Shown here piece by piece: positions 85 to 29,846 of a stretch of DNA of 32,000 nucleotides. The first letter of the stretch is position 1, and the number at the start of each line of letters is the position of its first letter. The notes under the pieces are model-generated. The model was not told the DNA's origin, ran no database searches, and saw only the letters and a list, made by a program, of their open reading frames with translations. The position numbers and the translations under genes were made by a program. Source of the DNA: an uncultured Opitutales bacterium (lineage in GTDB: Bacteria; Verrucomicrobiota; Verrucomicrobiia; Opitutales; Intestinicryptomonadaceae); assembly GCA_934613415.1 (NCBI GenBank), contig CAKTSY010000001.1:1-32000 (forward strand), given 5' to 3'.

Positions 85-3000
85 ATGAAGATGTTTGACA
101 ACATAAACACCTTTGTTAAGGACGACCTTAAAGCCGAAATCCACGAAAACAGTAAGTTGTCTATCGCTGCCGCCTGCTTTTCGATATACGCCTATCAGGA
201 ACTAAAAGCGCAGCTCGACGGTATTTCCGAATTGCGATTTATCTTCACATCGCCCACATTTACCACCGAAAAGGCGTCGAAAGCCAAACGCGAATTCTTC
301 ATTCCGCGCGCCGACCGCGAAAAATCGCTCTACGGAACGGAATTCGAGTTAAAGCTGCGCAACGAGCTAACCCAAAAGGCAATCGCGCAAGAGTGCGCCG
401 AATGGATTCGCCAAAAAGTGAAGTTTCGCTCGAATATCACAAACGAGCAAATCGGCGGCTTCTTGAATATCGAGTCGCCGCAGCCGTTCACCTACCTGCC
501 GCTAAACGGTTTTACCACGGTTGATATCGGTTGCGAACGCGGCAACAACGCTTTCAATTTCGTCCACAGGTTTGAAGCCCCGCTTACCCAAACCTACATT
601 CAAACATTCAATTCCATTTGGAACGACAAAACAAAGCTCCAAGACGTAACCGACATCGTCATAGAAAACATTTCGGCGGTCTATCGTGAAAACCCGCCCG
701 AATTCATCTACTTTATAACGCTTTACAACATTTTCAGCGAATTTTTGGAGGACATCTCCGAAGACGAACTGCCCAACGAGGCGCTCGGCTTTAAGGAAAG
801 CGTTATCTGGAAAAAGCTTTACGACTTCCAAAAAGACGCTGCCCTTGCCATTATCAACAAGCTTGAACGCTACAACGGCTGCATTCTTGCTGACAGCGTG
901 GGGCTCGGCAAAACGTTTACGGCGTTGGCGGTTGTAAAATACTACGAAAACCGCAACAAAAGCGTGCTTGTGCTTTGCCCCAAAAAGCTCGAAAGCAACT
1001 GGCACACCTTTAAGGAAAACTACAAAAACAACCCCCTGCGCGAAGACAGGCTTCGCTACGATGTGCTCTTCCACACCGACCTTTCGCGAACAAGCGGAAA
1101 GTCGAACGGGCTTGACTTGGCGCGGCTCAACTGGGGCGCATACGACCTTGTCGTTATAGACGAATCGCACAATTTCCGCAGCGGCGGGCAAATTTACGGC
1201 GACGACGAAAAGCGCGAAAACCGCTACCTGCAACTTTTGAACAAAGTTATCCGCGACGGCGTAAAGACGAAAGTTCTTATGCTTTCGGCAACGCCCGTAA
1301 ACAACCGCTTTGGCGATTTGCGCAACCAGCTTGCCCTTGCCTACGAGGGCGATTCTTCCAATATCGACGGCAAGCTTAACACAAAGCGCGGCATAGACGA
1401 AATCTTCCGCCGAGCCCAAGGCGCATTCAACGCGTGGAGCAAACAGCCGCTCGAAAAACGCACAACCGCCGACCTTCTCGAACGCTTGGATTTCGACTTC
1501 TTCGAGCTTCTCGACAGCGTTACCATAGCGCGCTCGCGCAAGCATATCGAAAAGAATTACAACACCGCCGCAATAGGCAAGTTCCCCACGCGCCTGAAGC
1601 CGATATCGCTTCGCCCCTGCATTACAACGCTAAAACGCGCAATCAACTACACGGAAATCTTCGAGCAACTGCAATGTCTTACGCTCAGCGTGTATTTGCC
1701 GTCCAACTTCGTTTTCCCGAGCGCGCTGGCAAAATACGACGACCAATATTCAAGCGACGTCAGCACAAACGTGCGCTTCACCCAGCGCGACCGCGAAAAA
1801 GGAATCCACCGCCTTACGGGAATCGGGCTTTTGAAGCGTCTTGAAAGCTCGGTTTATTCGTTTAGACTTACGCTTGAGCGCATAAAAGCATTCAACGAAA
1901 AGACAATTCGCATAATCGACCGCTTTGAAAAATCTGCGTCGGCTGACTTGTTCGAAATGGAAGACCTTAAAACTCAGGCGGAACTCGACGCAGACGACGG
2001 CGACAGCGACCTTTTCAGCGTAGGGCGCAAAGTGAAATACGAGCTTGCCGACATCGACTGCACCTCTTGGCGCAAAGAACTTGAAAGCGACGTCGAGAAC
2101 ATCGACCTGCTCCTTGCGATGATAAACGACATCACGCCCGAGCACGACAACAAGCTGAATACGCTTCTTGCTCAGATTGACGAAAAAATTGCCCACCCAA
2201 TAAATGCCGGCAACCGCAAAATCATAATCTTCACCGCCTTTGCCGATACCGCAAACTACCTTTACGACCACGTTTCAAAATACGCCCTCGAAAAATATGG
2301 AATGCACACCGCCATCATTACGGGCGAAGTTGCGGGGCGTTCGAACGTGCCGAAAATGAAGACCGATTTGAACACGGTTCTCACCTGTTTTTCGCCCATA
2401 TCGAAAGAAAAGTCGCTGCTTTCGCCCGACGACAATTTCAATATCGACATTTTAATTGCAACCGACTGCATCTCGGAAGGGCAAAATTTGCAGGATTGCG
2501 ATTATCTTGTAAATTACGACATTCATTGGAATCCCGTCCGAATCATTCAGCGTTTCGGACGCATAGACCGTATCGGCAGCCATAACGACAAAATCCAGCT
2601 CGTGAATTTCTGGCCCGATATGGAGCTTGACGATTACATAAACCTTAAAAACCGCGTCGAGACCCGTATGCGCATTACCGTTATGACCGCAACGGGCGTC
2701 GGCTCCGACAACATAATTGACGGCGGCGACGAAGACCTTGAATACCGCAAAAAGCAGCTCGAACGCCTGCGCGATGAAGTCATAGATATCGAGGAAATGA
2801 ATTCGGGCGTGTCCATTATGGACTTGGGGCTTAACGAATTTCGTCTCGACCTGCTCGACTACATCAAAAAACACGGCGACCCGAACAATATTCCGTCGGG
2901 GCTTTGCGCCGTTGTGCCCGCATCTACCGACAACCCCGCGGGCGTTGTTTTTGTTCTGCGCAATGTAAACGAAAGCGTCAATATAGACAGGCAAAACCGC

Positions 3001-3345
3001 CTGCATCCGTTTTATATGGTTTACATCACAAGCGGCGGCGATGTTCACCTAAACCACCTGCAGCCAAAAGAATTGCTCGACGCCATGCGCGTGCTCTGCA
3101 AGGGCAAAACAGAACCCATTCAAACCCTCTGCAAAGCCTTCAATCGCGAAACTGCCGACGGCAGGAAAATGGGCAAATACTCAAAACTTTTGGGCGACGC
3201 CATAAAATCCATCATATCCGTAAAGGAGGAAAGCGATTTCGACAGCCTTTTCTCTGCGGGCGGCACATCCGCGCTTGAAAACGACATCAAGGGCTTGGAC
3301 GACTTCGAGCTTGTGTGCTTCCTTGTTGTAAAGGAGGCGAAATGA
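85..3345 (+). CDS. SNF2/Swi2-family helicase of the defence-island type (1086 aa), with an N-terminal domain of about 240 aa of unknown function
   Basis: Helicase motif I DSVGLGKT and motif II DESH are present, as is the C-terminal lobe ATDCISEGQNLQD...HWNPVRIIQRFGRIDRIGS. The ATG at 85 follows a GGAGG. The stop overlaps the next start (ATGA at 3342-3345). Confidence 0.85.
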   Translation: MKMFDNINTFVKDDLKAEIHENSKLSIAAACFSIYAYQELKAQLDGISELRFIFTSPTFTTEKASKAKREFFIPRADREKSLYGTEFELKLRNELTQKAIAQECAEWIRQKVKFRSNITNEQIGGFLNIESPQPFTYLPLNGFTTVDIGCERGNNAFNFVHRFEAPLTQTYIQTFNSIWNDKTKLQDVTDIVIENISAVYRENPPEFIYFITLYNIFSEFLEDISEDELPNEALGFKESVIWKKLYDFQKDAALAIINKLERYNGCILADSVGLGKTFTALAVVKYYENRNKSVLVLCPKKLESNWHTFKENYKNNPLREDRLRYDVLFHTDLSRTSGKSNGLDLARLNWGAYDLVVIDESHNFRSGGQIYGDDEKRENRYLQLLNKVIRDGVKTKVLMLSATPVNNRFGDLRNQLALAYEGDSSNIDGKLNTKRGIDEIFRRAQGAFNAWSKQPLEKRTTADLLERLDFDFFELLDSVTIARSRKHIEKNYNTAAIGKFPTRLKPISLRPCITTLKRAINYTEIFEQLQCLTLSVYLPSNFVFPSALAKYDDQYSSDVSTNVRFTQRDREKGIHRLTGIGLLKRLESSVYSFRLTLERIKAFNEKTIRIIDRFEKSASADLFEMEDLKTQAELDADDGDSDLFSVGRKVKYELADIDCTSWRKELESDVENIDLLLAMINDITPEHDNKLNTLLAQIDEKIAHPINAGNRKIIIFTAFADTANYLYDHVSKYALEKYGMHTAIITGEVAGRSNVPKMKTDLNTVLTCFSPISKEKSLLSPDDNFNIDILIATDCISEGQNLQDCDYLVNYDIHWNPVRIIQRFGRIDRIGSHNDKIQLVNFWPDMELDDYINLKNRVETRMRITVMTATGVGSDNIIDGGDEDLEYRKKQLERLRDEVIDIEEMNSGVSIMDLGLNEFRLDLLDYIKKHGDPNNIPSGLCAVVPASTDNPAGVVFVLRNVNESVNIDRQNRLHPFYMVYITSGGDVHLNHLQPKELLDAMRVLCKGKTEPIQTLCKAFNRETADGRKMGKYSKLLGDAIKSIISVKEESDFDSLFSAGGTSALENDIKGLDDFELVCFLVVKEAK

Positions 3346-3989
3346 CGGATTTCCCCCAGTCAACATTCGTCGGCAAAACTTTTTCCGAATCGAAGTTTTT
3401 CAGAAAGCTTGCGCTTTCCAAAAAGACACTGCCCTTCGGCAATATCGAAAAAATCGTCTGGCGCAACAAGCTTTCCGCCAAAACGCTCAACGTTCAGGAC
3501 GGCGCGCGCGTTAGGGAAATTCAAGTTTTCCACGTCATTTTGCGGGAGGATAACCCCGTAGACGGAATCTTGCGGGCAATAGACAACGCCGTTGCCTACC
3601 AAATTTTGTTTCTCGTTCAGCTTGGCGAAAAATTCCAAGCGTGGATTGGCTATAAAGAAGCCGACTTAAACGGTGTTAGCCTTACCGTAAAAACCTACTA
3701 TAAGACCGATTGGACGGACCTTGAAAGCCTGCCCATTGCCGTTTGCGGGCTTACGCTCGACGACGTTTACGCAAATTTTATCTCGCAAATAAACGAAAAC
3801 GTCAAAGCCGCGCCCGAAACCGACTTGCGCACGCGCGTAAACACCGCCGACGATATCGACAAACTCGAACGCGAAATAGAGAAACTAAAATCGCGCCTGC
3901 GCAAAGAACCGCAGTTCAACAAGCAAATTAAGCTGAATGCGGAAATCAAAACTTTAAAAACAAAAATAGAAGAAATTAAAAATGGATAA
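3342..3989 (+). CDS. DUF4391-like protein (215 aa) with a C-terminal coiled-coil tail
   Basis: I chose the start at ATG 3342 because it follows AAGGAGG at 3331-3337 and overlaps the SNF2 stop. IVWRNKLSAKTLNV...EIQVFHVIL...AIDNAVAYQILFLV matches my memory of the DUF4391 signature (IxWxNKLSxxTLN, EIxVF). This family is typically found between a helicase and a methyltransferase. Confidence 0.65.
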   Translation: MTDFPQSTFVGKTFSESKFFRKLALSKKTLPFGNIEKIVWRNKLSAKTLNVQDGARVREIQVFHVILREDNPVDGILRAIDNAVAYQILFLVQLGEKFQAWIGYKEADLNGVSLTVKTYYKTDWTDLESLPIAVCGLTLDDVYANFISQINENVKAAPETDLRTRVNTADDIDKLEREIEKLKSRLRKEPQFNKQIKLNAEIKTLKTKIEEIKNG

Positions 3990-3990
3990 A
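3981..3990. repeat. Left copy of the 10-bp direct repeat AATGGATAAA, bounding the AT-rich one-gene cassette
   Basis: It is an exact match to 4681-4690. It contains the ATG of the cassette ORF and the TAA of the DUF4391-like gene (ATGGATAA). Confidence 0.8.
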
Positions 3991-4689
3991 AAAGGACATA
4001 TACCGTTTTTAATAAAGCTTGGTAATAAACAAAATATGTCTGCGTTATATGAGCGCGGAGAAATTTATATGCAAACTTTTGCATATTTTAAGAAAATAGA
4101 AATTGGACAAGATGGACGAGGAGACCCTAACGAAAACTTGCTAAAATACTTCAATGGTGAAGCATTAAAGCGTAATAAATTTAAAATTATAGCAAATATT
4201 AATCAGGAAAATTTTGAGCGTACATTTTCCCCTAATAATGGCACGGTTTCTGTTTCGATTGGAAGTTTAGAAATTGATAAGAATACAAACGTGTTCTCAA
4301 CGAGTATTGTTTATCCCGAGATTGGCAAACAAACACAAATAGATTTCGAAGAACAAAATTTTGCGGAAGACAAAGATTTTGCAGTAGTAATATTCGACAT
4401 AGAAACTTTCAAAAAACGAATCATTGATGCACTAAAAAGACTTTCACCTCTAAGAATATACGGAGGAAAAGTTTCATATTTTGATCCAGCAAATTTTGGA
4501 GGGAACGTAGGCCCACTTATGAAAACAAAAGAATATTCATACCAACGTGAATTTAGGATATGCGCGTATTTCCCAAATAGCGAAGTTCGTAAGTTTGAAA
4601 TTGGTAGCCTTAGTGGGGTGGCATTCCCTCCAATGGATAAGAATGAACTTCATAATCACAAATTTTTATTAACAAAAAATAATGGATAA
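3982..4689 (+). CDS. Hypothetical protein (235 aa) encoded by an AT-rich cassette inside the RM operon; faint DUF2971-like resemblance
   Basis: It is a complete ORF coupled to both neighbours through ATGGATAA overlaps. Composition is K/N/I/E-rich and GC is visibly much lower than in the flanks. The N-terminal ALYERGEIYMQTFAYFKKIE..GRGDPNEN and the C-terminal KEYSYQREFRI loosely recall DUF2971. That recollection is unverified. Confidence 0.6.
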   Translation: MDKKGHIPFLIKLGNKQNMSALYERGEIYMQTFAYFKKIEIGQDGRGDPNENLLKYFNGEALKRNKFKIIANINQENFERTFSPNNGTVSVSIGSLEIDKNTNVFSTSIVYPEIGKQTQIDFEEQNFAEDKDFAVVIFDIETFKKRIIDALKRLSPLRIYGGKVSYFDPANFGGNVGPLMKTKEYSYQREFRICAYFPNSEVRKFEIGSLSGVAFPPMDKNELHNHKFLLTKNNG

Positions 4690-4690
4690 A
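4681..4690. repeat. Right copy of the 10-bp direct repeat AATGGATAAA
   Basis: It is an exact match to 3981-3990. It contains the ATG of mod and the TAA of the cassette ORF. Confidence 0.8.
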
Positions 4691-6676
4691 TTTACTTTCA
4701 AAACTGCCGACGGCATAAATGTTAACATTGAAAAGCTTTCGCAGGCTTTCCCTGAAGTTATTACAGAAACTGTGGGTGGAGACGGCAAAATCAAGCGCGT
4801 TGCCGACTTTGAGAAGCTTAAAATGCTTTTGGGCGATTCCACTGCCGAACGCCCGCAAGAGTTCTACGAATTTACTTGGCCCGGCAAGAACGAAGCCATT
4901 TTTGAAGCCGCCAAGGCTACTACAAAAACCCTGCGCCCTTGCCCCGAAGAAAGCAAAAATTGGGACACCACCCAAAACCTTTATATTGAGGGCGACAACC
5001 TTGAAGCCTTAAAGATTTTGCAGGAGGCATATCTTGGCAAAGTCAAAATGATTTACATAGACCCGCCCTACAACACGGGCAAAGAGTTTGTTTACCGCGA
5101 TAACTTCCACAAATCCGCCGAAGAAGGCAAAGAAGACGAAACCGTTCGCGACGAAGAGACCGACAACAACCTTTTCCAAAACACCGAATCTAACGGACGC
5201 TTTCATTCCGACTGGTGTTCAATGATATACCCGCGCCTAAAACTCGCCCGCGACCTCCTGCGCGACGACGGCGTTATTTTCATTTCCATAGACGACAACG
5301 AAGTCCACAACCTTAGAAAGATTTGCGATGAGATTTTTGGAGAGAGTAATTTTATTGCAACTTTAATATGGGATAAAAATCATAGTGCACAAGCAGGAAT
5401 ATTTAAGGTTTATCATGAATATATTGTTGTCTTCGCAAAAAATAAATTTTTGCAAGAAACACCAAATTCTCTAAATAGTGAATTATTTGAAGCTGGTGCT
5501 ATGAAAAAACCATCTGGTCGCCACTCGCTACAAGAATTTACATTCCCTGCGGGTACAAGATTTGATGCTCCTGATAATACCGAATACTTTGGGACTTGGG
5601 GAGGGCTAGAATCTTTGAGATTAGTAAAAGGAAGAATGCGAGCATTAAACGGGAAACTTGTAGAAGATGCAACAATTGAAGCTGCATATACTCAAATCGC
5701 TCAAATGAAGGAATTTTTCTATGGTAATAATAGCATGTTATTAGATTCAAGAGGACAAAAAATTGTAGAATTTTATTTAACTTCGACTGGTAAGGTAAAA
5801 ATTGTAAAACAAAGAAGCGTAGAAACTCCCCAAACAACATGTCATTTTGGAGCTCAAGGTCCTATATCTAAGGATTTAGCAAATTTATTTAAGATACCCG
5901 AATCTCCTTTTGATTCACCCAAACCAATTAAAATGATAGAAAATTTCATTCTGAGATTTTCCGGAGAAGATGATATTGTAATGGATTTTTTTGGAGGATC
6001 TTCAACTACTGCACATGCAGTATTCTTGGCAAATTTAAAAAATCAATCCACTAGAAAATTTATTATAGTTCAATTCCCTGAATCTCTAGAAATCGCGTTA
6101 AAAAAAGCGTCAAAAGATAACAAGAGAACACTAGAAGCAGCTATTGAATATTTAAAAAAGAGAAATAACCCGCTTTTAATTTCAGAAATCGGGAAAGAAC
6201 GTATTCGATTAGCGGGCGATAAAATAAAAGCCGAGAACGCAACAACCGCACCGAATTTAGACATTGGCTTCCGAGTTCTAAAACTTGCCGAAAGCAACAT
6301 GAAAGACGTCTATTATTCGCCCAACGAAACATCTCAAGACTTGCTAAGCGAACTTGAAAGCAATATCAAAGAAGACCGCACCGCGCTTGATCTACTCTTC
6401 GCCTGCCTTATTGATTGGGGCGTGGAACTTTCGCTCCCGCTAAAAACCGAAACCATAGACGGTGTCGAAGTCCACACGGTAAACTACGGCGAAACTCCAG
6501 ACTTAATCGCCTGCTTCGCGCAAAATATCCCCGAGGCGGTAATCCGCAAAATAGCCGCCCGCCACCCCCTACGTGCCATCTTCCGCGATTCCTCTTTCGC
6601 CGACAGCCCCGCCAAAATCAACCTAACCGAAATCTTCAAAACATACTCGCCTGGAACGGATGTTAAGGTGTTATAA
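4682..6676 (+). CDS. mod: Type III restriction-modification Mod subunit, an N6-adenine (beta-class) DNA methyltransferase (664 aa)
   Basis: Catalytic motif IV IYIDPPYNTG precedes a variable central region, which is followed by AdoMet motif I MDFFGGSSTTAHA. This is the beta-class order IV-TRD-I. The size and the position upstream of res fit a Mod subunit. Confidence 0.85.
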   Translation: MDKFTFKTADGINVNIEKLSQAFPEVITETVGGDGKIKRVADFEKLKMLLGDSTAERPQEFYEFTWPGKNEAIFEAAKATTKTLRPCPEESKNWDTTQNLYIEGDNLEALKILQEAYLGKVKMIYIDPPYNTGKEFVYRDNFHKSAEEGKEDETVRDEETDNNLFQNTESNGRFHSDWCSMIYPRLKLARDLLRDDGVIFISIDDNEVHNLRKICDEIFGESNFIATLIWDKNHSAQAGIFKVYHEYIVVFAKNKFLQETPNSLNSELFEAGAMKKPSGRHSLQEFTFPAGTRFDAPDNTEYFGTWGGLESLRLVKGRMRALNGKLVEDATIEAAYTQIAQMKEFFYGNNSMLLDSRGQKIVEFYLTSTGKVKIVKQRSVETPQTTCHFGAQGPISKDLANLFKIPESPFDSPKPIKMIENFILRFSGEDDIVMDFFGGSSTTAHAVFLANLKNQSTRKFIIVQFPESLEIALKKASKDNKRTLEAAIEYLKKRNNPLLISEIGKERIRLAGDKIKAENATTAPNLDIGFRVLKLAESNMKDVYYSPNETSQDLLSELESNIKEDRTALDLLFACLIDWGVELSLPLKTETIDGVEVHTVNYGETPDLIACFAQNIPEAVIRKIAARHPLRAIFRDSSFADSPAKINLTEIFKTYSPGTDVKVL

Positions 6677-6677
6677 G

Positions 6678-7208
6678 ATGGAAAACAGTTTATACATTTG
6701 CATAGGAACTATAATTGGCACAATGATTGGATCTATAATATCATTTTTAACTACATTATTTATTAATCATTCAAAAAACAGAAGAGAAGATAATCTCTAT
6801 CTTAGGGAAAAACGTGAACACTTGTATTTAGAGGCAATAGATTGCCTCTATCTTATGTGTAAAAAGATAAAACCACATGTCTCAAAATCAGAAGCTGAAC
6901 ACATAGCGAAAGAAATAAAAGAAATAACTTCAAGGCTTAGTAGCAGATTTGTTTTATACGCTTCTACAGAAGTACGAACGAAATTTGCAGCATTCGTACC
7001 TATTGCGGATATAATTTACAATCTTGCAGATATTCCAGAAGCAGCGAACTTACGACAGGAACAATTTGATAAAATCGCGGCATCAAACAAGGTTACTGAA
7101 TTGATAGAAGCGATGAAAAAAGAACTCGGGACATTAGAAAAGCAAAAAACAAAAGGGTTCCAATGCAATCTTTGCTCGTGGATACAAAGTAAATTCTCTG
7201 CAAAATGA
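6678..7208 (+). CDS. Hypothetical small membrane protein (176 aa) inserted between mod and res
   Basis: ATG 6678 lies one nucleotide after the mod stop (TAA 6674-6676). The stop overlaps the res start (ATGA 7205-7208). There is one N-terminal TM helix (LYICIGTIIGTMIGSIISFLTTLFI), and the rest looks helical. The gene is strongly AT-rich. Confidence 0.6.
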   Translation: MENSLYICIGTIIGTMIGSIISFLTTLFINHSKNRREDNLYLREKREHLYLEAIDCLYLMCKKIKPHVSKSEAEHIAKEIKEITSRLSSRFVLYASTEVRTKFAAFVPIADIIYNLADIPEAANLRQEQFDKIAASNKVTELIEAMKKELGTLEKQKTKGFQCNLCSWIQSKFSAK

Positions 7209-10200
7209 AATTAAAATTTAAACATCAAAAATTTCAGGCGGACGCGGCAAAAGCGGTTTGTGATGTTTTTGCGGGGCAGCCGCGCGTGGTTTCCACTTAT
7301 CAAATAGACCCTGGGCGCGACAGTCGGCAGGGAAAAATCCGCAATGTGTTATTCACGGGTTTTGCAAACAACAGGTTAATTCCCGCGCTTACGGATGCGG
7401 TTTTGCTAAAAAACATCAACCGCATTCAGCACGAGCAGATGATAAAGCCTTCCGACAAAATCGAGGGCGTCGGGATAAATCTTACCGTTGAAATGGAAAC
7501 GGGCGTGGGGAAAACCTACACCTACATAAAAACTATTTACGAGCTAAACAAGCTTTACGGCTGGAGCAAATTCATAATAGTAGTGCCGTCGGTTGCAATC
7601 CGCGAGGGTGTGTATAAGTCGTTCTCGGTAACGGCGGAGCATTTCAAGGAAGAATACGGCAAGCAAATTCGCTTTTTCATCTACAATTCGGGCAACCTGC
7701 AAAACATTTCGCAATTTGCAAGCGACAGCTCCATAAACGCAATGATAATAAATTCGCAGGCGTTCAACGCAAAAGGCAAAGACGCCCGCCGCATCAGAAT
7801 GGAGCTTGACGAATTCAACAGCCGCCGCCCGATAGACGTTATAGCCAAAACAAATCCCATTTTGATAATAGACGAGCCGCAATCGGTTGAGGGAAAGACA
7901 ACAAAGGAATCGCTAAAAGACTTCAATCCGCTCTTCACGTTGCGCTACTCGGCAACGCATAAAAAGGACAGCATCTACAATATGGTTTACAGGCTCGACG
8001 CAATCGACGCCTACAATCAAAAGCTTGTAAAGAAAATCGCGGTAAAGGGAATTTCGCAAAGCACAACAACAGGCACTTCGGGCTACTTGTATTTGCAGGG
8101 GATAATTCTTTCGCCCAGCAAACCGCCGCGCGCAAAGCTTGAATTCGACATAAAGGGCGCGGACAAAATCCGCAGAACCACAAAGATTTTCGACCAAGGC
8201 AACGACATCTACGCATCTTCGAGAGAGCTTGATGAATACAAAGACCGCTACGTTATAAAAACTATCGACGGCAGGGACAATTCTGTGGAGCTTTTAAACG
8301 GCACAAAGCTTTTTGTAGGCGACGTTATAGGCGCGGTAGACGAAGACCAGCTGCGCCGCATTCAAATTCGCGAGACGATAATTTCGCACCTCGAACGCGA
8401 GCGCGAGCTTTTCAAAAAGGGCATAAAAGTGTTGTCGCTTTTCTTTATCGACCAAGTTGCCCACTACAAGATTTACAACGACAAAAACGAAGCCTGCAAC
8501 GGCGAGTTTGCCGACATTTTCGAGGAGGAATACGCAAGCGTAGTTCAAGACTTTCTCGACGATTTGGCGGTTGACCAAGATTACAAAAACTACCTAAAAG
8601 CCCACACTGCCGCGCAAATCCACGTTGGCTATTTTTCGATAGACAAAAAAAGCAAGCACTTTGTAGACAGCGATGTTAAGGAAGACAGAAAAGCCAAAAT
8701 TTCAAACGACGTTGACGCCTACGACCTTATCATGAAAAACAAGGAAAGGCTGCTCGATTTAAACGAACCCGTGCGCTTTATATTCTCGCACTCGGCGTTG
8801 CGCGAGGGCTGGGACAACCCCAATGTTTTTCAAATCTGCACGCTAAAACAAAGTTCGGCGGAAATCCGCAAAAGGCAGGAAGTCGGCCGCGGATTGCGCT
8901 TGTGTGTGAACCAAAACGGCGAGCGTATGGACGCAAACGCCATCGGCGCGGACGTCCACAACGTCAACGTGCTTACAGTTATAGCGAGCGAGTCATACGA
9001 AAAATTTGCAAGCTCGCTTCAAACCGAATACGCCGAAGCCGTTTCCGACCGTCCCTGCAAGGTTGAGGCAAAAATTTTCGTCGGCAAAATTGCCCGTCTT
9101 TCAGACGGCACGGAATGCGCAATTACGGAAGAACAGGCAAGCGCAATCTGCCACAGCCTGATAAAGAACGACTACATAGACGACAAAAACACTCTTACCG
9201 CCAAATATTACGACGACAAAGCAGCCCAGCGTTTTACACTGCCCGAGCAGTTAAAACCGCTTACCGAAACAGTCGTAAAAGTTTTGGACAACATTTACGA
9301 CCCAGGCAAAATCAGGGCGGAAAACGCCGCGGCGAACAACGTTGTTGCCCGAGTAAACGAAAACAAAATCGCCAGCAAAGAGTTCAAGGCGTTGTGGGCA
9401 AAAATTTCGGCAAAAAGTGCCTACTGTGTTGATTTCGACACGTCAGAGCTTGTCGCAAAATCAATCGAGCACCTAAACAAAGAGTTGTTTGTAGGGCAGC
9501 GGTATTTCACGATAACCGAAGGTTCGATGGCAAAGATTGATTCGCGCGAAGCTCTCGAAAACAACGAGGCTTTCACGGCGACAAAGTCCGAAACAAAATT
9601 CGCTTCAAGTGATAACGAATTCGCAAATGTCCGCTACGACCTTATCGGGAGAATCGTCGCCGAAACGGGGCTTACGCGCAAAACCATTGTCGAAATTCTG
9701 CGGGGCATTCTGCCCGAAAAGTTCGATATGTTCAAAATTAACCCCGAAGACTTCATAATGCGCGCTTCGCGGATAATAAACGAGCAAAAAGCAACGGTTA
9801 TTGTTCAGCATATTGTTTACAACAAAATCGACGCAAAATACGATACGAGCATTTTTACAGAACCCACGCTAAAAGGCAGGCTGAACGTGAACGCGATGGA
9901 AACGCCGCACCACCTTTACGACTACCTTATTTACGACTCTTCTATCGAAAAGAATTTTGCGCAGGAATTTGAAATTAAGGGCGATGTTGTTCTCTATGCA
10001 AAGCTGCCCAAAAGCTTTTATATAAACACGCCCGTCGGCAATTACAGCCCCGACTGGGCAATAGTTTTCAAGGAAGACAAAGCAAAGCATATCTACTTTG
10101 TGGCAGAAACAAAAGGCGATATATCGAGCATGTCCTTTCGTGGCGTTGAAAACGCAAAAATTGACTGTGCAAAAAAACACTTCGCCGCAATCAGCCCAAG

Positions 10201-10261
10201 CGATATCACCTACGACTTCGTGAATAATTACAAAGAGCTAATCGACAAAGTGATGGCGTAG
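7205..10261 (+). CDS. res: Type III restriction enzyme Res subunit: SF2 helicase plus C-terminal PD-(D/E)xK nuclease (1018 aa)
   Basis: Motif I METGVGKTYT, motif II IIDEPQ and motif VI RKRQEVGRGLRL are present. The C-terminal YSPDWAIVF...YFVAETKG is nuclease-like. Confidence 0.85.
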   Translation: MKLKFKHQKFQADAAKAVCDVFAGQPRVVSTYQIDPGRDSRQGKIRNVLFTGFANNRLIPALTDAVLLKNINRIQHEQMIKPSDKIEGVGINLTVEMETGVGKTYTYIKTIYELNKLYGWSKFIIVVPSVAIREGVYKSFSVTAEHFKEEYGKQIRFFIYNSGNLQNISQFASDSSINAMIINSQAFNAKGKDARRIRMELDEFNSRRPIDVIAKTNPILIIDEPQSVEGKTTKESLKDFNPLFTLRYSATHKKDSIYNMVYRLDAIDAYNQKLVKKIAVKGISQSTTTGTSGYLYLQGIILSPSKPPRAKLEFDIKGADKIRRTTKIFDQGNDIYASSRELDEYKDRYVIKTIDGRDNSVELLNGTKLFVGDVIGAVDEDQLRRIQIRETIISHLERERELFKKGIKVLSLFFIDQVAHYKIYNDKNEACNGEFADIFEEEYASVVQDFLDDLAVDQDYKNYLKAHTAAQIHVGYFSIDKKSKHFVDSDVKEDRKAKISNDVDAYDLIMKNKERLLDLNEPVRFIFSHSALREGWDNPNVFQICTLKQSSAEIRKRQEVGRGLRLCVNQNGERMDANAIGADVHNVNVLTVIASESYEKFASSLQTEYAEAVSDRPCKVEAKIFVGKIARLSDGTECAITEEQASAICHSLIKNDYIDDKNTLTAKYYDDKAAQRFTLPEQLKPLTETVVKVLDNIYDPGKIRAENAAANNVVARVNENKIASKEFKALWAKISAKSAYCVDFDTSELVAKSIEHLNKELFVGQRYFTITEGSMAKIDSREALENNEAFTATKSETKFASSDNEFANVRYDLIGRIVAETGLTRKTIVEILRGILPEKFDMFKINPEDFIMRASRIINEQKATVIVQHIVYNKIDAKYDTSIFTEPTLKGRLNVNAMETPHHLYDYLIYDSSIEKNFAQEFEIKGDVVLYAKLPKSFYINTPVGNYSPDWAIVFKEDKAKHIYFVAETKGDISSMSFRGVENAKIDCAKKHFAAISPSDITYDFVNNYKELIDKVMA

Positions 10262-23659: not shown

Positions 23660-24046
23660 TTAGCCGAGTTTACCCATTATATAAAAGAAAAGCGTGCCCA
23701 ACAGCAAAAACGCCAAAGCCAAAACTAGTGTATAGGCAGCCGCCTTTTTTTGCCCTTTGCGGAATATCCAATAACAATAGGGAGCAAAAACCGCCAAAAA
23801 GGGCCAACCCAAAAAGCACAAGCCGCTAAGGAAATAGGCAACCAAAATTGCGGCGGCTGGCGTTTGCGGATTTTGGGCTTTAACCTCCTGCAATTCAACA
23901 AAGCTTTGCATTGGCACAAGCTCGCCACGGCCCAAATCTACAAAGTGCAGCATACCAAGTTTGCCGTAGTTTAGCTGCATTAAGATTTCGTCGCGGCTAT
24001 ATTCGCCTATAGCGCGGCCTTTCCAATACACCTTGTATTTTTTCAT
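23660..24046 (-). CDS. GYF_2 (DUF4339)-like domain protein with 2-3 C-terminal TM helices (128 aa)
   Basis: The N-terminus WKGRAIGEYSRDEILMQLNYGKLGMLHFVDLGRGELVPMQSF is like the bacterial GYF_2 fold pattern. Hydrophobic helices follow. The start overlaps the upstream stop (ATGA at 24043-24046). Confidence 0.55.
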   Translation of the reverse strand: MKKYKVYWKGRAIGEYSRDEILMQLNYGKLGMLHFVDLGRGELVPMQSFVELQEVKAQNPQTPAAAILVAYFLSGLCFLGWPFLAVFAPYCYWIFRKGQKKAAAYTLVLALAFLLLGTLFFYIMGKLG

Positions 24047-26790
24047 TTATGCGCCTTTAGCAGTGGCGAAAAAATTGCGGGTTTTTCAAGCAACTTGCCG
24101 TTTTCGTATACTACAACAACTTTGCTAGTTGCAGCCGATATCCCGAAAATTTTGCCGCTGTTTTCGCCAAAGAAATGTGCCGTCGAAAGTTCGTCGACAT
24201 AGCCTACAAAAACCTTCGGGTTTTCTAGCATAGACTTTGCCAGATTTTTAGTTTCGGTTGCTTCTTTTATATAATTTGGCTGTTTTTCGGAATATAGTGC
24301 GGCTTTAATGTCGTCTACTTTTGCTGAATTTGCATATATCCACGAAAACGGGGAAAATTCTGCCGCCTTTTCCAAAATAAGTTGTTTGCGGTTTAATGCG
24401 CTTTTTGAATATGCAATGCCGCTTGATATTTCGTCTGTATTTTGGGCTGTAAAAAGAGAATATTCAAGATAGGCTTTAAAAACGCAGTTTACATCAGCTT
24501 TGGCAACTTCGGCTAAAGCTTCGGGCAAAGTGGGGCGTTTGCGCGCCAATTCCGTTAAAAATTGCGATTCCTTTGCAGGGGTTTTACCTGTAAGAAGCTC
24601 GTTTACCTTAACATATGCGCCCGAAACCAACTTGCGGCGCATTATGTGCCTTAAAGTGCCGTCTTGCGAAAACTGACGCCCAGTTTGTATTACTTCGTAG
24701 CCACCGGGCCATTCGTTGGTTCTTTCTTTAAGCACTTTGCTTGTATATATTTTTTTGCCGTCTTTGTCGGTATATTCGTATACGTCGTAAAGTTGTTCCC
24801 ATTCGTTTAATGGGGCAATTTTAGCGAACGAAAATTCCTTGCTTGCACTTTTAAAGGCGCGTTTGCCTATAAGTTCGGTTAAATCGCCGTAAATTAGACT
24901 TTCTTTTTGCGCTTGGGCATTTTTTATGCTTTTTGCAAAACGCTCGGGCAACGGATTTATTGCCGACAACTGCGTTAATGCCGAATAGAATTCGTCTAGC
25001 GAGCGTGCGTTGTTTATAGCGTTTTGGGCGTTTTTTATGTCCTGCAATCGCATTGTATAAGCGGTATATTTTGAAATATAGTCGTTATACTTTGTTTGAT
25101 TTAACGGGTGAAGCGGAACAATTCTCGAATATTTTTCGACAAGGTTTTTTAGAATTTGTACTTTTTTGCCAAGTTCGTTTACGGAATTTTCGAAGCTTTG
25201 TCCGTAGTCGCTTGAAAATGCCGAAATGCAGTTTTCTATTTCGTTGGACGCAAGCGAAAACTCCTTTTCAAAAGAGCTTTTTACAGTGTCTATTAAAATA
25301 TAAAAACGGCGTTTGCCTGCCTGAATTTTTTCGGAAATTTCGCTTTCGTCTTCTTTTGGCAGCTTTTGCGCGCTTTCTTCCAATGCCGCAAATTCGGCGT
25401 TTGCCGCCTTGAATGTGTTAGAATCTATGGCGTCGGGCTTAATGCTGCCCAAAGTTTCAAGAGAATTTTCTATTTTCGCCTTTCGGTTTTCAAGCATTTG
25501 CAAAGTATTTTTTGCGTTTGCAATTTCCCTTTCAAATTTCGGGGCAAATTCGGAATATTGCTTGTCGAAATACGCAAGCGAGTTTTTCATTTCGCTTATG
25601 CTCGGCAATGTTTCGAACTTTGCCACTTCCGACATAGCGGCGTTTGCACGCTCGCTTTTTCGGCTTAAATTAAAACATAGCATAGCGCAGGCTGCAATTG
25701 CGGCCACAGCGCAGATTGCAAAGCCAAGTTTCGCAAGTTTTTTAACCTTTAACGCATGTTTGATTGACGCAATTTTTTGCGATACTTTTTTTGCGGAGTT
25801 TTCGTCGAAATACTTGCCGTATTTATTTTGCAGTTCGGTAAAATCGGCCAGGCTTTGGGCAAGGTTTTTGCCTTTTTTAGAGTCGCTTTCGAATGCCAAA
25901 AGGGCCGCCGTTTTAGCCTTTGCCGAAAGCTCGGTTTTTGCGTGTTCGTCGCGCAAGGCAAAGGCTTTGTCTTTCAAAACTTCGGCGTTGCCAAAGTCGC
26001 TTTGCGAAACAATGTCGGGGTATTCAAACGCAATAAGTTTTAATTCGTTGTAAAGCGAAATTGCGGCGCGCCAGTCTTTTGATATGTCTATAGACTTTAT
26101 TTGGCTTAAAATCTCCCGGGCATTTTCCTTTGCGTTTTGCAGCTTTATAGCGTCTATTTTTTTGCAGATTTCGCGCCAGCTGGCGCTGTCGGTGTCAAAT
26201 TCCGAGCTGTTTGCCTCTAAAAAGGCAAAAAGTTTTAGGGCTTGTTCGGTGTCGTTGTTTTGCAGTGCCGTTTTAATTTTGGCAAGCTTTTCGCTTACTC
26301 GGCTTTTTAGCAGGCGCACATATTCCGCCTTTATGTCGCTATTGTTAGAATTTATGCGCGAAATTGTTTTTATAATTTTTAGGGCGTCGTCGTAGTTGCG
26401 ACTGCGCATAGCCCTGCGGTAGTCTCTGTAAAGAGGGTGGTTTTGCCCGATGTCTTTTGTGTATAGCGACTGCAAAAGTTCCACATAATAGCCGTCAAAA
26501 TCTGGGGCGCATTCGGCGTTAAATTCGCCGCACAATGCGCGCCATTCGGGCAGTCCTTTAAATTCAAGCAAATTTATTGTATCTAAAACTGGCGGCTCGC
26601 TTTCGGCAATTTGCAACGCCAAATAGTCTCTGTTCGAACGTATGAGAGCTACGCACCGTTCAAGCCTGTCGGCGCAGGCGTTGCGTATGGCGTTGTATTC
26701 GTCGCACAGGCTTTTTATTTCGCTTTCGGTTGGAACTGTTTTGCCGTTTAAAAGCGATTGTATTTTTACTATTAAAAGTTGGCTGTTCAT
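24043..26790 (-). CDS. Large bitopic, mostly helical protein with no recognisable domain (915 aa)
   Basis: I chose the start at ATG 26790, 5 nt after the upstream stop, rather than the ORF-track start at 26868, which would overlap the previous gene by 73 nt. A single TM helix (LGFAICAVAAIAACAMLCF) is encoded around 25669-25734. It separates an N-terminal part of about 350 aa from a C-terminal part of about 540 aa. Confidence 0.7.
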   Translation of the reverse strand: MNSQLLIVKIQSLLNGKTVPTESEIKSLCDEYNAIRNACADRLERCVALIRSNRDYLALQIAESEPPVLDTINLLEFKGLPEWRALCGEFNAECAPDFDGYYVELLQSLYTKDIGQNHPLYRDYRRAMRSRNYDDALKIIKTISRINSNNSDIKAEYVRLLKSRVSEKLAKIKTALQNNDTEQALKLFAFLEANSSEFDTDSASWREICKKIDAIKLQNAKENAREILSQIKSIDISKDWRAAISLYNELKLIAFEYPDIVSQSDFGNAEVLKDKAFALRDEHAKTELSAKAKTAALLAFESDSKKGKNLAQSLADFTELQNKYGKYFDENSAKKVSQKIASIKHALKVKKLAKLGFAICAVAAIAACAMLCFNLSRKSERANAAMSEVAKFETLPSISEMKNSLAYFDKQYSEFAPKFEREIANAKNTLQMLENRKAKIENSLETLGSIKPDAIDSNTFKAANAEFAALEESAQKLPKEDESEISEKIQAGKRRFYILIDTVKSSFEKEFSLASNEIENCISAFSSDYGQSFENSVNELGKKVQILKNLVEKYSRIVPLHPLNQTKYNDYISKYTAYTMRLQDIKNAQNAINNARSLDEFYSALTQLSAINPLPERFAKSIKNAQAQKESLIYGDLTELIGKRAFKSASKEFSFAKIAPLNEWEQLYDVYEYTDKDGKKIYTSKVLKERTNEWPGGYEVIQTGRQFSQDGTLRHIMRRKLVSGAYVKVNELLTGKTPAKESQFLTELARKRPTLPEALAEVAKADVNCVFKAYLEYSLFTAQNTDEISSGIAYSKSALNRKQLILEKAAEFSPFSWIYANSAKVDDIKAALYSEKQPNYIKEATETKNLAKSMLENPKVFVGYVDELSTAHFFGENSGKIFGISAATSKVVVVYENGKLLEKPAIFSPLLKAHK

Positions 26791-26795
26791 AAAAA

Positions 26796-28097
26796 TTATT
26801 CTTTCGAAAGTTGCTCTAATAGGCGTTTTGTGCGTTTTAAAAGCGATTTTTTGTCGGCAAAGTCGCATTTTTCAAGGAACTTTTCGGCATTGGCGCAAGC
26901 TTTTGCCATTTCGTCTTTTTTGGATTGGCTTGGCTGAGCTGTGCTGTTTAAAACGTCTTCAAAATCGCGCAAATTTTTTACTATGGAATTTCGTATTTTA
27001 GAATTTATAAATGAAATATAGTCTTTTTTTATTTCCCTATTTTCGTAGCCGAACCAAATTGAGGTTGCCAAAGAGTATTCTGTGCGGGCAATGGCGTTGT
27101 CTATTCTTTTGGCTATTTGCGCAAAAGATTCGCCGCCGTATTCTACGCTGTATTCCTCTTCGGGCTCGTTGCCGCCGAACAGCGAAAACGCCAAAACAAC
27201 TACAAGCGAACACAAAACGGCAATTACAACCGAATATATGTATATTGGCTGGAATGTGCGTTCGGGCTTTGTGTTTACAACCGTAAATTTGGTGTTTGCC
27301 TTTTTTGGCTTTGCGGCGGTAAGCGATAGGGCTTCGGCTTTTGTTAAAACGCCGTTTCTTGCATATTCGCTTAGCCTGCATTCGGCAAGGGGCGGGAATG
27401 TAGCAGAATCCAAATCTATGGCGTTTGAAGGTTGCAAATCTTTTGAGCGGTTAATGCAAACTTTCCATTTATAAGCCAAAGCTACTTCGCTTGCGCCCAA
27501 AGCCGTTGTAAATGTATAACTCCACGCCGACTTGCCGTTTACCGTTAATGCCAAAGATTCCGCAAAAAGTTTTAGAATTGTTTTTTGCGGGAATTGCTTT
27601 GAAGCAAATAGCTCGCAGTCGTCTTTAATTCGCGGCAAAGCGGCTAAGCCTTGGTCTTTAAAAATTTCGCCCCAAGTTTTGCAGGGAACATGCTTTTCGA
27701 ACGCAATTTTAGACAAGTTAGGCGGCTCTTTGATTTTTTGCGGAGCTTTTGTGTAGGAATTTAGCCAGTTATACTGCAAAAGAATGTCGACAGGATTCGG
27801 GTATTTTGCGGTTTCTGCTGCAGACAAAACAAGATGGTGCGAAATAAAGTTTGTGCGCCCCGTATAGTCTTTGCCGCAGTCTGCCGAGCGCGTCAGCACA
27901 AAATAGTCGCAACCCGAGTAGGTTAGTTTATTTAATGAATATTTTTCCGAAACCGAGGCGTGGTCGAAATTGCTGAATTTTTCGACCATCAAAACAAGCC
28001 TTTCGGGCATATTTTCAGTATAGGCTGCAACGCAAAAGCCCGAGCGGCCAGCCATAATGCCCGAGGGCAAACTTGTATAAATCAATTCAAACGCCAT
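26796..28097 (-). CDS. GAP1-N2-like (GTPase-associated protein 1-like) protein with TM helix and C-terminal helical tail (433 aa)
   Basis: The N-terminus MAFELIYTSLPSGIMAGRSGFCVAAYTENMP and the later DYTGRTNFISHHLVL resemble the QLxYTS..G..G.GFQ / GRxGNxxAHxLV signatures I recall for the GAP1-N2 domain. The TM helix covers about aa 284-307. The gene starts 9 nt after the GTPase gene stops. Confidence 0.5.
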   Translation of the reverse strand: MAFELIYTSLPSGIMAGRSGFCVAAYTENMPERLVLMVEKFSNFDHASVSEKYSLNKLTYSGCDYFVLTRSADCGKDYTGRTNFISHHLVLSAAETAKYPNPVDILLQYNWLNSYTKAPQKIKEPPNLSKIAFEKHVPCKTWGEIFKDQGLAALPRIKDDCELFASKQFPQKTILKLFAESLALTVNGKSAWSYTFTTALGASEVALAYKWKVCINRSKDLQPSNAIDLDSATFPPLAECRLSEYARNGVLTKAEALSLTAAKPKKANTKFTVVNTKPERTFQPIYIYSVVIAVLCSLVVVLAFSLFGGNEPEEEYSVEYGGESFAQIAKRIDNAIARTEYSLATSIWFGYENREIKKDYISFINSKIRNSIVKNLRDFEDVLNSTAQPSQSKKDEMAKACANAEKFLEKCDFADKKSLLKRTKRLLEQLSKE

Positions 28098-28106
28098 TGT
28101 TTTGCC

Positions 28107-29846
28107 CTATACGGTTTCTATTAGCCCGTCTATTGTTTGGCTTATAGCCCAAATTGTGGGAACTTCCACATACATCGGGTTTAGCTTTTCTATATCGGGG
28201 GCAATCATACCCGCGCATTCGCCGCTTTCTATCTTTATGGGTGTATGCCCTAAGGGGCTAACGGCAAAAAACATAGTGTTTTCCGAAAGCGATTCGGCGG
28301 TGGAAACTATTGAAGGCTCGGTTGCCATCATAAACTTTCTAATCTTTTCGCTATTGCTTTTTACCGCCGACAAATCCAGGGCATTTGCCTTGTAATAGTC
28401 TTGCAGGGGTTCGTCTAAAAGGTCTTTCCATATGTCGAATTTGTTTATTATTATGGCAAGCGGCTTTTTAATTTTTGCGGCCGATTCCATTCCCGAAATT
28501 CGCTTAATGCGCACTTCCATTTCCGACATAATCGTGTCTTGCTGGTCTACGCGGCCCGTTATCTTAAGCTGAGGGTCGGGGTGGTCGCGTAGCTTTTCCT
28601 TAAAGCCCCTGTTAGAAGCAGGGTCGAAAATAAAGAATATTGCCGCGCTGCTTGCAACGTGCATTGCCCCCGGCGAATCTTCCAAATCTATTCCCGGCTC
28701 GAAATGTTCGCCTGCGTTGTCGTAAAACACCAAGGCTTTGTCGGAAATCTTGTCGTTCGAAATAGAGTAGGTTAACGGTTTTGGCAAAGCCACCATTTTG
28801 CCGAAGCGGGGGTACTTTTCGTACATCGCGCCTTCGAATGCCGTTTTTGCCAATATGGCGTCTTGGCTTGTTGTCGCCGAAAACAGCTTGTTTTTCATTA
28901 AAGTTAGCATCATATTGCCGCTTGGGTCTAAGTCTTTAAAACTTACGCCGAATCGCTGCGCTAAAACGTCTTTAAGCTCTTTAATTAACACGCTTAGATA
29001 ATACGACTTGCCCGAGCTTGGCGCGCCTACAATGGAAAATATTTTTGCGTCTAAATCTAAAAAGCCCGATGGCAATTTTTTGCGGCAGTGCGGGCACGCA
29101 ATGTCGGGGGCTGGCAAGCCCATAGGGTCTAGCGCAATGCCGCGTTCGTTAAACGAAACGGGCAAAAACCTAAGCATTTCGTCGGGGCCTAAAACCGTGT
29201 CGCCCCTAAGGCTTTCGTGCGAGGCTATGCTTAGCGCGTCGCCAATATCGAAGCTTAAGTAGCACATAGGGCAGGTTATTGCGTGCGAGTTGTACGAAAC
29301 AGGGGCAATGTCTAAAACTGCATCTAAATTGCCTTCGTTAAATACCTGCGAATAGAAAAAACCCAAGTTTGAACCCTTTGGAGCTATCGCCAAGCCAGCC
29401 CCTGTAAGCCCGCGCTTTACAACCGAGTTTTTTAGCGAGACAAACGGCACTTCATCTTCTATTCTGCCGTTGATTGCGTCGAACAAAAACCAGCGCGACA
29501 AGTCTATGCTTTGGGCTTTTTTAAGGGCATTTTCGCCGCAAAACAAAATATATAGGCCGTTCGAAAATTGTATTGTGCATTCGCCGTTTTCTACAAGTGT
29601 TTCGGCTTCGGGCACTTTAGAATTTATAAGCACGCTGTCGTCGGAACATCTCCTAAGAATAAAGCCGCCCGATTGGCCGAATAAAAGCTCTAAAGCCTCG
29701 AATACTTCGTTTGCCTTTAGCGCGCAGTTATCCGATTCGCCTATTTTGGCGGGGAATTCTTCTGTCTGCGAAATTTGCCCATTAACGCAGTTTAACAAAA
29801 CGGCTTTTCTTCCGATAAATCTTTTCGAGTTTCCAAAAAATTTCAT
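28107..29846 (-). CDS. TRAFAC-class GTPase with an N-terminal FHA-like domain and a split CxxC...CxxC zinc ribbon (579 aa)
   Basis: G1/Walker A GAPSSGKS is encoded at 29004-29027 and G3 YDNAGE near 28710-28721. G4 NKFD is encoded at 28434-28445. CPMC (aa 192-195) and CPHC (aa 251-254) lie just before the P-loop. The N-terminal 100 aa have an FHA-like beta pattern (weak call). Confidence 0.75.
   Translation of the reverse strand: MKFFGNSKRFIGRKAVLLNCVNGQISQTEEFPAKIGESDNCALKANEVFEALELLFGQSGGFILRRCSDDSVLINSKVPEAETLVENGECTIQFSNGLYILFCGENALKKAQSIDLSRWFLFDAINGRIEDEVPFVSLKNSVVKRGLTGAGLAIAPKGSNLGFFYSQVFNEGNLDAVLDIAPVSYNSHAITCPMCYLSFDIGDALSIASHESLRGDTVLGPDEMLRFLPVSFNERGIALDPMGLPAPDIACPHCRKKLPSGFLDLDAKIFSIVGAPSSGKSYYLSVLIKELKDVLAQRFGVSFKDLDPSGNMMLTLMKNKLFSATTSQDAILAKTAFEGAMYEKYPRFGKMVALPKPLTYSISNDKISDKALVFYDNAGEHFEPGIDLEDSPGAMHVASSAAIFFIFDPASNRGFKEKLRDHPDPQLKITGRVDQQDTIMSEMEVRIKRISGMESAAKIKKPLAIIINKFDIWKDLLDEPLQDYYKANALDLSAVKSNSEKIRKFMMATEPSIVSTAESLSENTMFFAVSPLGHTPIKIESGECAGMIAPDIEKLNPMYVEVPTIWAISQTIDGLIETV

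Follow-up and report, generated by a model that had tools for sequence, protein, structure and literature searches.

How do genes enter tightly coupled operons without breaking them? The question is raised by X, a gene for a protein of 235 amino acids (aa) within a restriction-modification (R-M) operon of an uncultured Opitutales bacterium. The operon lies on contig CAKTSY010000001.1 of GenBank assembly GCA_934613415.1, of which positions 1 to 32,000 of the forward strand were analyzed; this whole 32-kb stretch is referred to as the window. Family scans identified six genes, all on the plus strand, which encode an SNF2-family helicase, a DUF4391 protein, X, the type III methyltransferase Mod, a protein designated Y and the type III restriction subunit Res. 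A preliminary description, made from the sequence alone, had proposed a precise insertion or exchange of X at an ancestral DUF4391/Mod junction. The junction was found to be conserved, to be filled or empty with exact boundaries and to be reused by unrelated genes, and X to have spread by homologous recombination. These observations suggest that the junction acts as a cassette slot. X is an optional gene set exactly in the stop/start overlap. It is likely that the slot is a reusable one, and X is probably an anti-phage accessory effector.

Mod (4682-6676) matched PADLOC MTase_III at 3.3e-199, and Res (7205-10261) matched PADLOC REase_III at 2.4e-288 and contains ResIII and RE_endonuc domains. 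With Mod adjoining a Res that carries both helicase and endonuclease domains, the host operon is a type III R-M system.

A direct repeat placed on two stop/start overlaps

The sequence AATGGATAAA is present at 3981-3990 and again at 4681-4690, so that the perfect 10-bp direct repeat of the preliminary description was located with a spacing of exactly 700 bp. Each copy contains the stop of one gene plus the start of the next, with an overlap of 8 nt. The left copy holds the TAA (3987-3989) of the DUF4391 gene (3342-3989, 215 aa from the ATG at 3342) and the ATG of X at 3982; the right copy holds the stop of X (4687-4689) and the ATG of Mod at 4682. The translations of X (3982-4689) and Mod both begin with MDK, in agreement with the earlier reading. 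The 8-mer core ATGGATAA occurs three times in the window, all within the X cassette, against 0.69 expected, a count reached by 3 of 100 shuffles of the window. It is absent from the other gene junctions of the 32-kb window, and is thus not a motif common to unrelated junctions there. The perfect 10-mer is specific to the X allele of the window. Other X alleles have AATGGATAGG as their left copy, in which the stop is TAG, and the repeat common to the X alleles is therefore 8 nt.

A third copy inside X had been pointed out as a caveat. It exists in frame at 4632-4641 as an imperfect copy, AATGGATAAG, which encodes P-M-D-K. PPMDK or close variants recur at the same position across the X protein family, and the third copy is therefore explained by protein conservation; its interpretation as a fossil junction was rejected on this ground. 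A longer duplication past the exact repeats was looked for in 60 nt on each side (window, L020, L016, L043, L046 and L059; related operons are cited by such locus labels) and was not significant (all p >= 0.10). As no significant similarity extends past the exact repeats, a resemblance first seen between the C-terminal tails of DUF4391 and X was not retained.

The cassette was correctly described as AT-rich compared to its flanks. X has a GC content of 0.325 and a GC content at third codon positions (GC3) of 0.237; the corresponding values are 0.461 and 0.565 for DUF4391, 0.468 and 0.542 for the N-terminal part of Mod and 0.500 and 0.641 for SNF2, giving a flank GC3 of 0.54-0.64. X is the sole open reading frame (ORF) of the cassette, which has no transposase gene. 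Its terminal inverted repeats are unconvincing (at best 76% over 21 nt, in AT-rich DNA), and no structured repeat was found at its ends. A scan for promoters and terminators in the cassette gave nothing above shuffled expectation, and X is therefore not a self-contained "moron". A GGAGG Shine-Dalgarno sequence precedes the SNF2 and DUF4391 genes only, and nothing comparable was seen upstream of X, Mod, Y or Res, each of which starts in or beside the stop of the preceding gene. Translation thus appears to be chained through the operon. Since X and Mod both lack a Shine-Dalgarno sequence, re-initiation at the overlap is presumably needed for Mod translation.

Empty sites among close relatives

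A metagenome scan that used DUF4391 rather than X as the seed gave 30 operons, nine of them from the lineage of the window, with SNF2 97-99% and DUF4391 90-98% identical to those of the window. X was missing in eight of the nine (L029-L034, L036 and L037), all of which read attaaaaATGGATAAatttactttc at the junction. This sequence is the left flank of the window, one junction copy and the right flank of the window. In the eight empty operons both SNF2 and DUF4391 are 97-99% identical to the proteins of the window. The single ATGGATAA in these operons serves as both DUF4391 stop and Mod start, and the DNA missing from the empty alleles is precisely that between the two copies. Filled and empty states coexist among near-identical, heavily recombining operons in human-gut metagenomes. 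X lies within an R-M operon and is optional among close relatives. The preliminary description had anticipated that some related operons might have an empty junction with a single ATGGATAA; such junctions were found in these eight close operons and in many distant ones, and carriage of X is accordingly not a feature of all related operons.

A conserved junction used by other genes

The direct ATGGATAA overlap between DUF4391 stop and Mod start was also found in L008, L038, L040-42, L044, L048, L049, L053 and L055. DUF4391 identity to the window is 28-40% in these operons, and the single-copy junction is therefore the widespread, conserved state of the operon family.

The DUF4391/Mod junction, here called slot 1, is occupied by genes other than X in further lineages. 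A Trypsin_2-like peptidase of 280-285 aa is present in L002, L043, L046 and L047, and membrane proteins of 188-210 aa are present in L001, L002 and L006. An AAA_13 ATPase of 730 aa fills the slot in L003, L005 and L052 (e.g. L005:6638-8830), with its start at a ATGGATAA or ATGGTTAA junction; the Pfam family AAA_13 covers the ATPase domain found in the anticodon nucleases PrrC and RloC. L050 carries a 233-aa protein of unassigned family and L039 a Schlafen/AlbA_2 fragment. In L004 and L051, a 98-bp remnant of a membrane-protein cassette records an imprecise deletion. The occurrence of different cassettes at the same site, raised as a possibility in the preliminary description, was thus observed, and some of these cassettes have junction duplications of their own.

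The peptidase cassettes show the same arrangement as X in the window. ATGGATAAGATGA is found at both ends of the cassette in L043 and ACAATGGATAAGATGA at both ends in L046 and L047, and L044, an empty relative, has a single junction copy. The peptidase of L002 begins with its own start, MTELGLSEQ, whereas that of L043 begins MDKMSLSEQ and that of L046 MDKMSLSE. The peptidase of L043 and L046 thus uses the opening four codons of Mod (MDKM) as its own. Such a takeover is hard to explain by convergent selection, and suggests that the cassette went in a few bases into Mod and that a short target was duplicated. The duplicated length in three events was 10 nt for X in the window and 13 and 16 nt for the peptidase cassettes.

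History and recombination of X

Close relatives of X are few, and all are located between DUF4391 and Mod. X homologues fill slot 1 in three further lineages, namely L015 (36% identity), L059-61 (41%) and L062 (38%). Across lineages, X proteins show a star-like pattern of 35-41% identity, which does not mirror the Mod tree. The Mod N-terminus of the X-bearing L062 is 83% identical to that of L041, in which the slot is empty, and presence and absence of X therefore recur outside the lineage of the window.

Within the lineage of the window, X alleles differ by 12-17% at the protein level. The ratio of nonsynonymous to synonymous divergence (dN/dS) of 0.20-0.38 indicates purifying selection, and hence that X is functional as a gene. 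Synonymous divergence (dS) of X was 0.18-0.30, a value similar to that of the neighbouring 5' region of Mod and higher than that of DUF4391; the values calculated for SNF2 were out of frame and are not considered. A tract of 847 bp (3932-4778), which spans X and both repeats, is shared with L014 with zero mismatches and is flanked by about 3% divergence; it marks a recent homologous-recombination tract which carried X and both repeats. Mosaic flank haplotypes are common to X-bearing and empty operons. X is thus an old, segregating accessory gene, which homologous recombination in the flanks carries from one operon variant to another. It is not a one-off insertion, because slot 1 is filled by the X family in at least four of the operon lineages and the X alleles have diverged like the Mod 5' region.

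The proposed insertion or exchange at an ancestral junction was thus supported by the filled and empty states and by the other cassettes. It was refined in that X is not a one-off arrival and that AT-richness is shared by the center of Mod and by the insert between Mod and Res; the direction of change (insertion or deletion), the mechanism and the role in defence are inferred.

Nature of the X protein

A profile search of 1.84 billion representative proteins gave 1,791 relatives of X at E <= 0.001 and 671 at E <= 1e-10. Among the matches listed at the top, most are stand-alone proteins of 200-240 aa. All of 60 sampled family members matched PHROG 26561, which has no known function. The faint DUF2971-like resemblance mentioned in the preliminary description was found to recur: weak DUF2971 matches were seen in 17 of the 60 members, the best of them at E=0.0065, while each other Pfam family was matched by one member only. 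This recurrence argues that the homology to DUF2971 is real but remote. A profile of 147 X sequences, used as a bridge to bona fide DUF2971 proteins, gave no Pfam-annotated matches.

DUF2971 is reported to be ADP-ribosyltransferase (ART)-like and akin to DarT and AbiGi, and to conserve a Tyr and an ExE motif (PMC12522546), and the lactococcal Aristaios is a single-gene DUF2971 abortive-infection system (PMC11381338). In the 147 X sequences, E190 and R192 are invariant and Y166 and Q188 nearly so, which gives a Q-x-E-x-R motif; D48, E51 and K181 are nearly invariant too. The Tyr and QxE of X may correspond to the ART motifs (Tyr in motif II, [Q/E]xE in motif III), an equivalence drawn from the description in PMC12522546 and not from an alignment. 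X resembles Aristaios, DUF2971, DarT and AbiGi in being a stand-alone protein of about 230 aa with weak DUF2971 matches, a conserved Tyr and Q-x-E-x-R as possible counterparts of the Tyr and ExE reported for DUF2971, and a defence-related context. Distant relatives of X adjoin McrBC with an integrase, a type I R-M system with DUF4238, and a mobile-element-like region, contexts which are consistent with a defence role. A tblastn search of X against plasmids and phages gave four weak plasmid matches, all to hypothetical proteins, and none in phages; a DUF4391 scan of viral contigs gave no match.

Weighing of the proposed explanation

Several observations weigh against a reusable slot that houses an anti-phage effector. 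With regard to the effector, X gave no above-threshold match in Pfam, NCBIfam or PADLOC, and its family none in NCBIfam or PADLOC, as expected from the earlier statement that X has no confident family assignment. The match of X to Pfam DUF2971 (PF11185), at 14.9 bits and E=0.073, stays below the gathering threshold of 22 bits. Structure prediction, which had been named as a way to place the protein, gave a confident AlphaFold model (predicted local distance difference test, pLDDT, of 94.6 with a 60-sequence alignment), with which Foldseek found no ART or other similar fold in PDB or BFVD. Since no fold was matched despite the high confidence of the model, ART-like activity of X is a lead, not a result. 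The X profile likewise had no match in PDB. X differs from DUF2971 and ART proteins in falling below the Pfam threshold and in that Foldseek matched its model to no ART structure. With regard to the slot, the junctions of the X homologues in L015, L059 and L062 are not clean repeats and are only partly alike (ATGAATAA, ATGGATGA), and duplication of the junction is therefore not universal. The X alleles are as old as the Mod alleles and recombinant flanks are shared, so that the empty operons of the window lineage could be deletions between the repeats and not the ancestral state. No enzyme able to make the duplication was identified.

Deletion is also central to an alternative in which X is old and vertically inherited, the junctions are alike by independent selection for a coupling signal, and the operons without X are precise secondary deletions between chance repeats. 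In line with such a history, X homologues occur in the three closest operon lineages (window, L015 and L059), the dS of X is about that of the adjacent Mod region, and the remnants in L004 and L051 document that slot-1 cassettes can be deleted, although imprecisely. However, the single-copy ATGGATAA junction is found in many lineages outside that clade, and selection for coupling does not predict that an unrelated peptidase should have 13- and 16-nt repeats which extend over Mod codons 3-5 and replace its native N-terminus. The star-like identities of 35-41% across lineages, which do not track the Mod tree, and the presence of X in L062 next to its absence from the closest Mod relative, L041, also fit poorly with descent, and we regard vertical inheritance as unlikely. 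It is very improbable that a dedicated enzyme recognizes the junction and makes a target-site duplication, be it transposase-like or a site-specific recombinase such as the upstream serine recombinase or integrase. Candidates are at hand, with a 199-aa resolvase/invertase-like gene just upstream in the window lineage, a phage-integrase-family gene in some loci and a resolvase in L015, and direct repeats at both ends do resemble a target-site duplication. Yet the cassette encodes X alone between unconvincing inverted repeats, the length of the repeat differs by event, and L059-L061 carry an X homologue without a nearby resolvase; the invertase is accounted for by a 163-bp invertible segment (described below), whose 17-bp repeats are unrelated to the junction. 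Finally, the 10-bp repeat could be a coincidence of AT-rich sequence. The flanks are A-rich, and the 10-mer with one mismatch allowed is not enriched in the window (6 found, 4.4 expected). This explanation is hardly credible, as the exact 8-mer is confined to the cassette in the window, both junction copies fall exactly on stop/start overlaps, and the empty alleles, missing exactly the DNA between the copies, refute it.

A reusable slot at the DUF4391/Mod overlap remains the preferred reading, and the following mechanism is proposed. A gene would be placed a few bases past the Mod ATG, with duplication of a short target of 10, 13 or 16 nt, as might happen in microhomology-mediated or staggered-break repair. 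The duplicated junction would keep DUF4391 termination, initiation of the insert and Mod initiation intact, and the incoming ORF would borrow the Mod start (MDK or MDKM). The cell needs Mod to survive Res, and an arrangement which preserves all three signals is one that selection would retain. The same direct repeats would allow precise loss of the cassette. X would act as an accessory defence effector, possibly ADP-ribosyltransferase-like, which would back up the restriction system as a second line or guard it, comparable to PrrC in EcoprrI. A bolder version holds that the ATGGATAA overlap is a dedicated, enzyme-independent docking site at which promoterless effectors are captured, expressed and swapped in frame, chained to the methyltransferase, and that X founds a new effector family, structurally unlike solved proteins, which monitors the restriction complex. 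We consider this version doubtful.

Comparison with known systems

The PrrC anticodon nuclease is an effector embedded in the type Ic EcoprrI restriction locus (PMC12707154), and has been proposed to be a second line of defence which fires when restriction is inhibited (PMC12707154, PMC1484252). Like PrrC in EcoprrI and related R-M-linked accessory toxins such as RloC and HEPN proteins, X is an optional single accessory gene inside an R-M operon, and sister operons hold known proteins of the abortive-infection type, Abi_C (between Mod and Res) and the AAA_13 ATPase (slot 1). The host system of X differs in being type III, with SNF2 and DUF4391, and not type I. X is unrelated to PrrC, and a duplicated start/stop overlap bounding the locus is not described for PrrC in the literature searched. 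By analogy, X, Abi_C, the AAA_13 ATPase and the peptidase may be back-up effectors tied to the restriction complex.

Modular exchange at short boundary "linker" sequences has been proposed for mosaic phage genomes, and polymorphic-toxin cassettes swap at conserved motifs. The present locus is similar in that unrelated genes swap at a fixed short boundary sequence and spread by recombination of related backbones. It differs in that the boundary is an 8-nt translational-coupling overlap in a chromosomal defence operon, which is duplicated and whose resident start codon is taken by the insert. The cassettes also resemble those of integrons, being promoterless single genes at a defined site, with upstream-driven expression and content which varies among close relatives. 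In contrast to integrons, there is no integron integrase, attC-like structured site or array at the locus, and what bounds the insert is a coding junction repeated directly over 8-16 nt. The recombinases neighbouring the operon are a small serine invertase, tied to the invertible segment, and a phage-integrase-family gene. The cassette does not qualify as an integron cassette, since no structured end repeat was found and the neighbouring recombinases are of other types. Nor does it qualify as a transposable element with target-site duplication, with X as the only ORF, weak inverted repeats and duplications of 10, 13 and 16 nt.

A second slot, an invertible segment and other features of the operon

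The SNF2 gene (85-3345), the first of the operon, is the one preceded by GGAGG along with DUF4391. Three modules of the operon are AT-rich with a GC3 of about 0.25, namely X, the variable central region of Mod and Y, the insert between Mod and Res. GC3 is 0.25 in the center of Mod (5252-6301), presumed to be the target-recognition domain, compared to 0.54-0.58 at its ends. Whole-Mod identity is just 59-65% among operons which are otherwise 97-99% identical, the difference being in the central region, a pattern suggestive of allelic exchange of the target-recognition region. Y is a 182-aa ORF (6660-7208, GC3 0.27) for a predicted membrane protein, and its true start is likely the ATG at 6678, 1 nt past the Mod stop.

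The Mod/Res junction (window 6677-7204; L014-L021, L030-L036 and L059-L061) is a second cassette slot and is hypervariable. In distant operons the Mod/Res spacer is 2-20 bp, mostly 10-12 bp, with the exception of a 672-bp insert in L001. In the window lineage, L015 and L059-61 the slot is never empty; the inserts are low in GC, 305-863 bp long and of at least seven kinds. These include the 182-aa Y (Y182), a variant 57% identical to it, a 214-aa protein, a 256-aa Abi_C protein, a 305-bp insert, a 202-aa protein, a 287-aa protein and an antisense 23S_rRNA_IVP gene. Homology of Y182 to the slot-1 membrane-protein cassettes of other lineages was not detected. The Res of L016 is divided between two ORFs, of 486 and 509 aa (L016:9395-12450), and may be a pseudogene or a phase-off allele.

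Between the SNF2 start and a divergent gene for a 199-aa serine invertase-like protein lies a 163-bp segment bordered by 17-bp inverted repeats (L009:3840-4036). The segment is in the opposite orientation in L009 compared to L010 and L011, on contigs which are otherwise 100% identical. Because it was seen in both orientations, the whole operon is apparently under an invertible, phase-variable switch. The first base of the window is the start of the right arm of this inverton repeat (CAAAAAAACGAACAATT, 1-17); the segment itself lies just upstream of the window. Upstream of the invertase, a phage-integrase-family gene or a Fic gene was found, depending on the locus (L009:2303-2965, L016:905-1456). 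A scan of genome contigs gave distant operons only (34-37% DUF4391 identity). The variable upstream genes and the distance of the genome-contig matches suggest that the operon lies in a variable or mobile island. Downstream of the operon, the housekeeping genes SHMT, PurD and LptF/G indicate that the host is a Gram-negative chromosome, with a GC content of about 43%. Further downstream, the minus strand at 24043-29846 carries a run of large ORFs of 941, 433 and 579 aa, one with a GAP1-N2 (GTPase-associated protein 1) domain and the others with no Pfam match; they may form a separate conflict or defence system.

Significance

Accessory effectors embedded in R-M loci are already documented, with accessory toxins in restriction loci known from a few classic cases such as PrrC. 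In the literature searched, neither cassettes flanked by a duplicated start/stop overlap nor the SNF2-DUF4391-type III operon family were found described; mentions of DUF4391 were few, and one of them is only an entry in a comparative table. The analysis also flags a large unannotated protein family of about 1,800 representatives, with a confident predicted structure which Foldseek matched to no solved structure or predicted viral structure. Two cassette slots are now defined in a widespread SNF2-DUF4391-type III operon family, and a search of these slots could yield new anti-phage effectors. Filled and empty alleles occur naturally and can be compared directly, and the locus offers a testable answer to how genes enter tightly coupled operons without breaking them.

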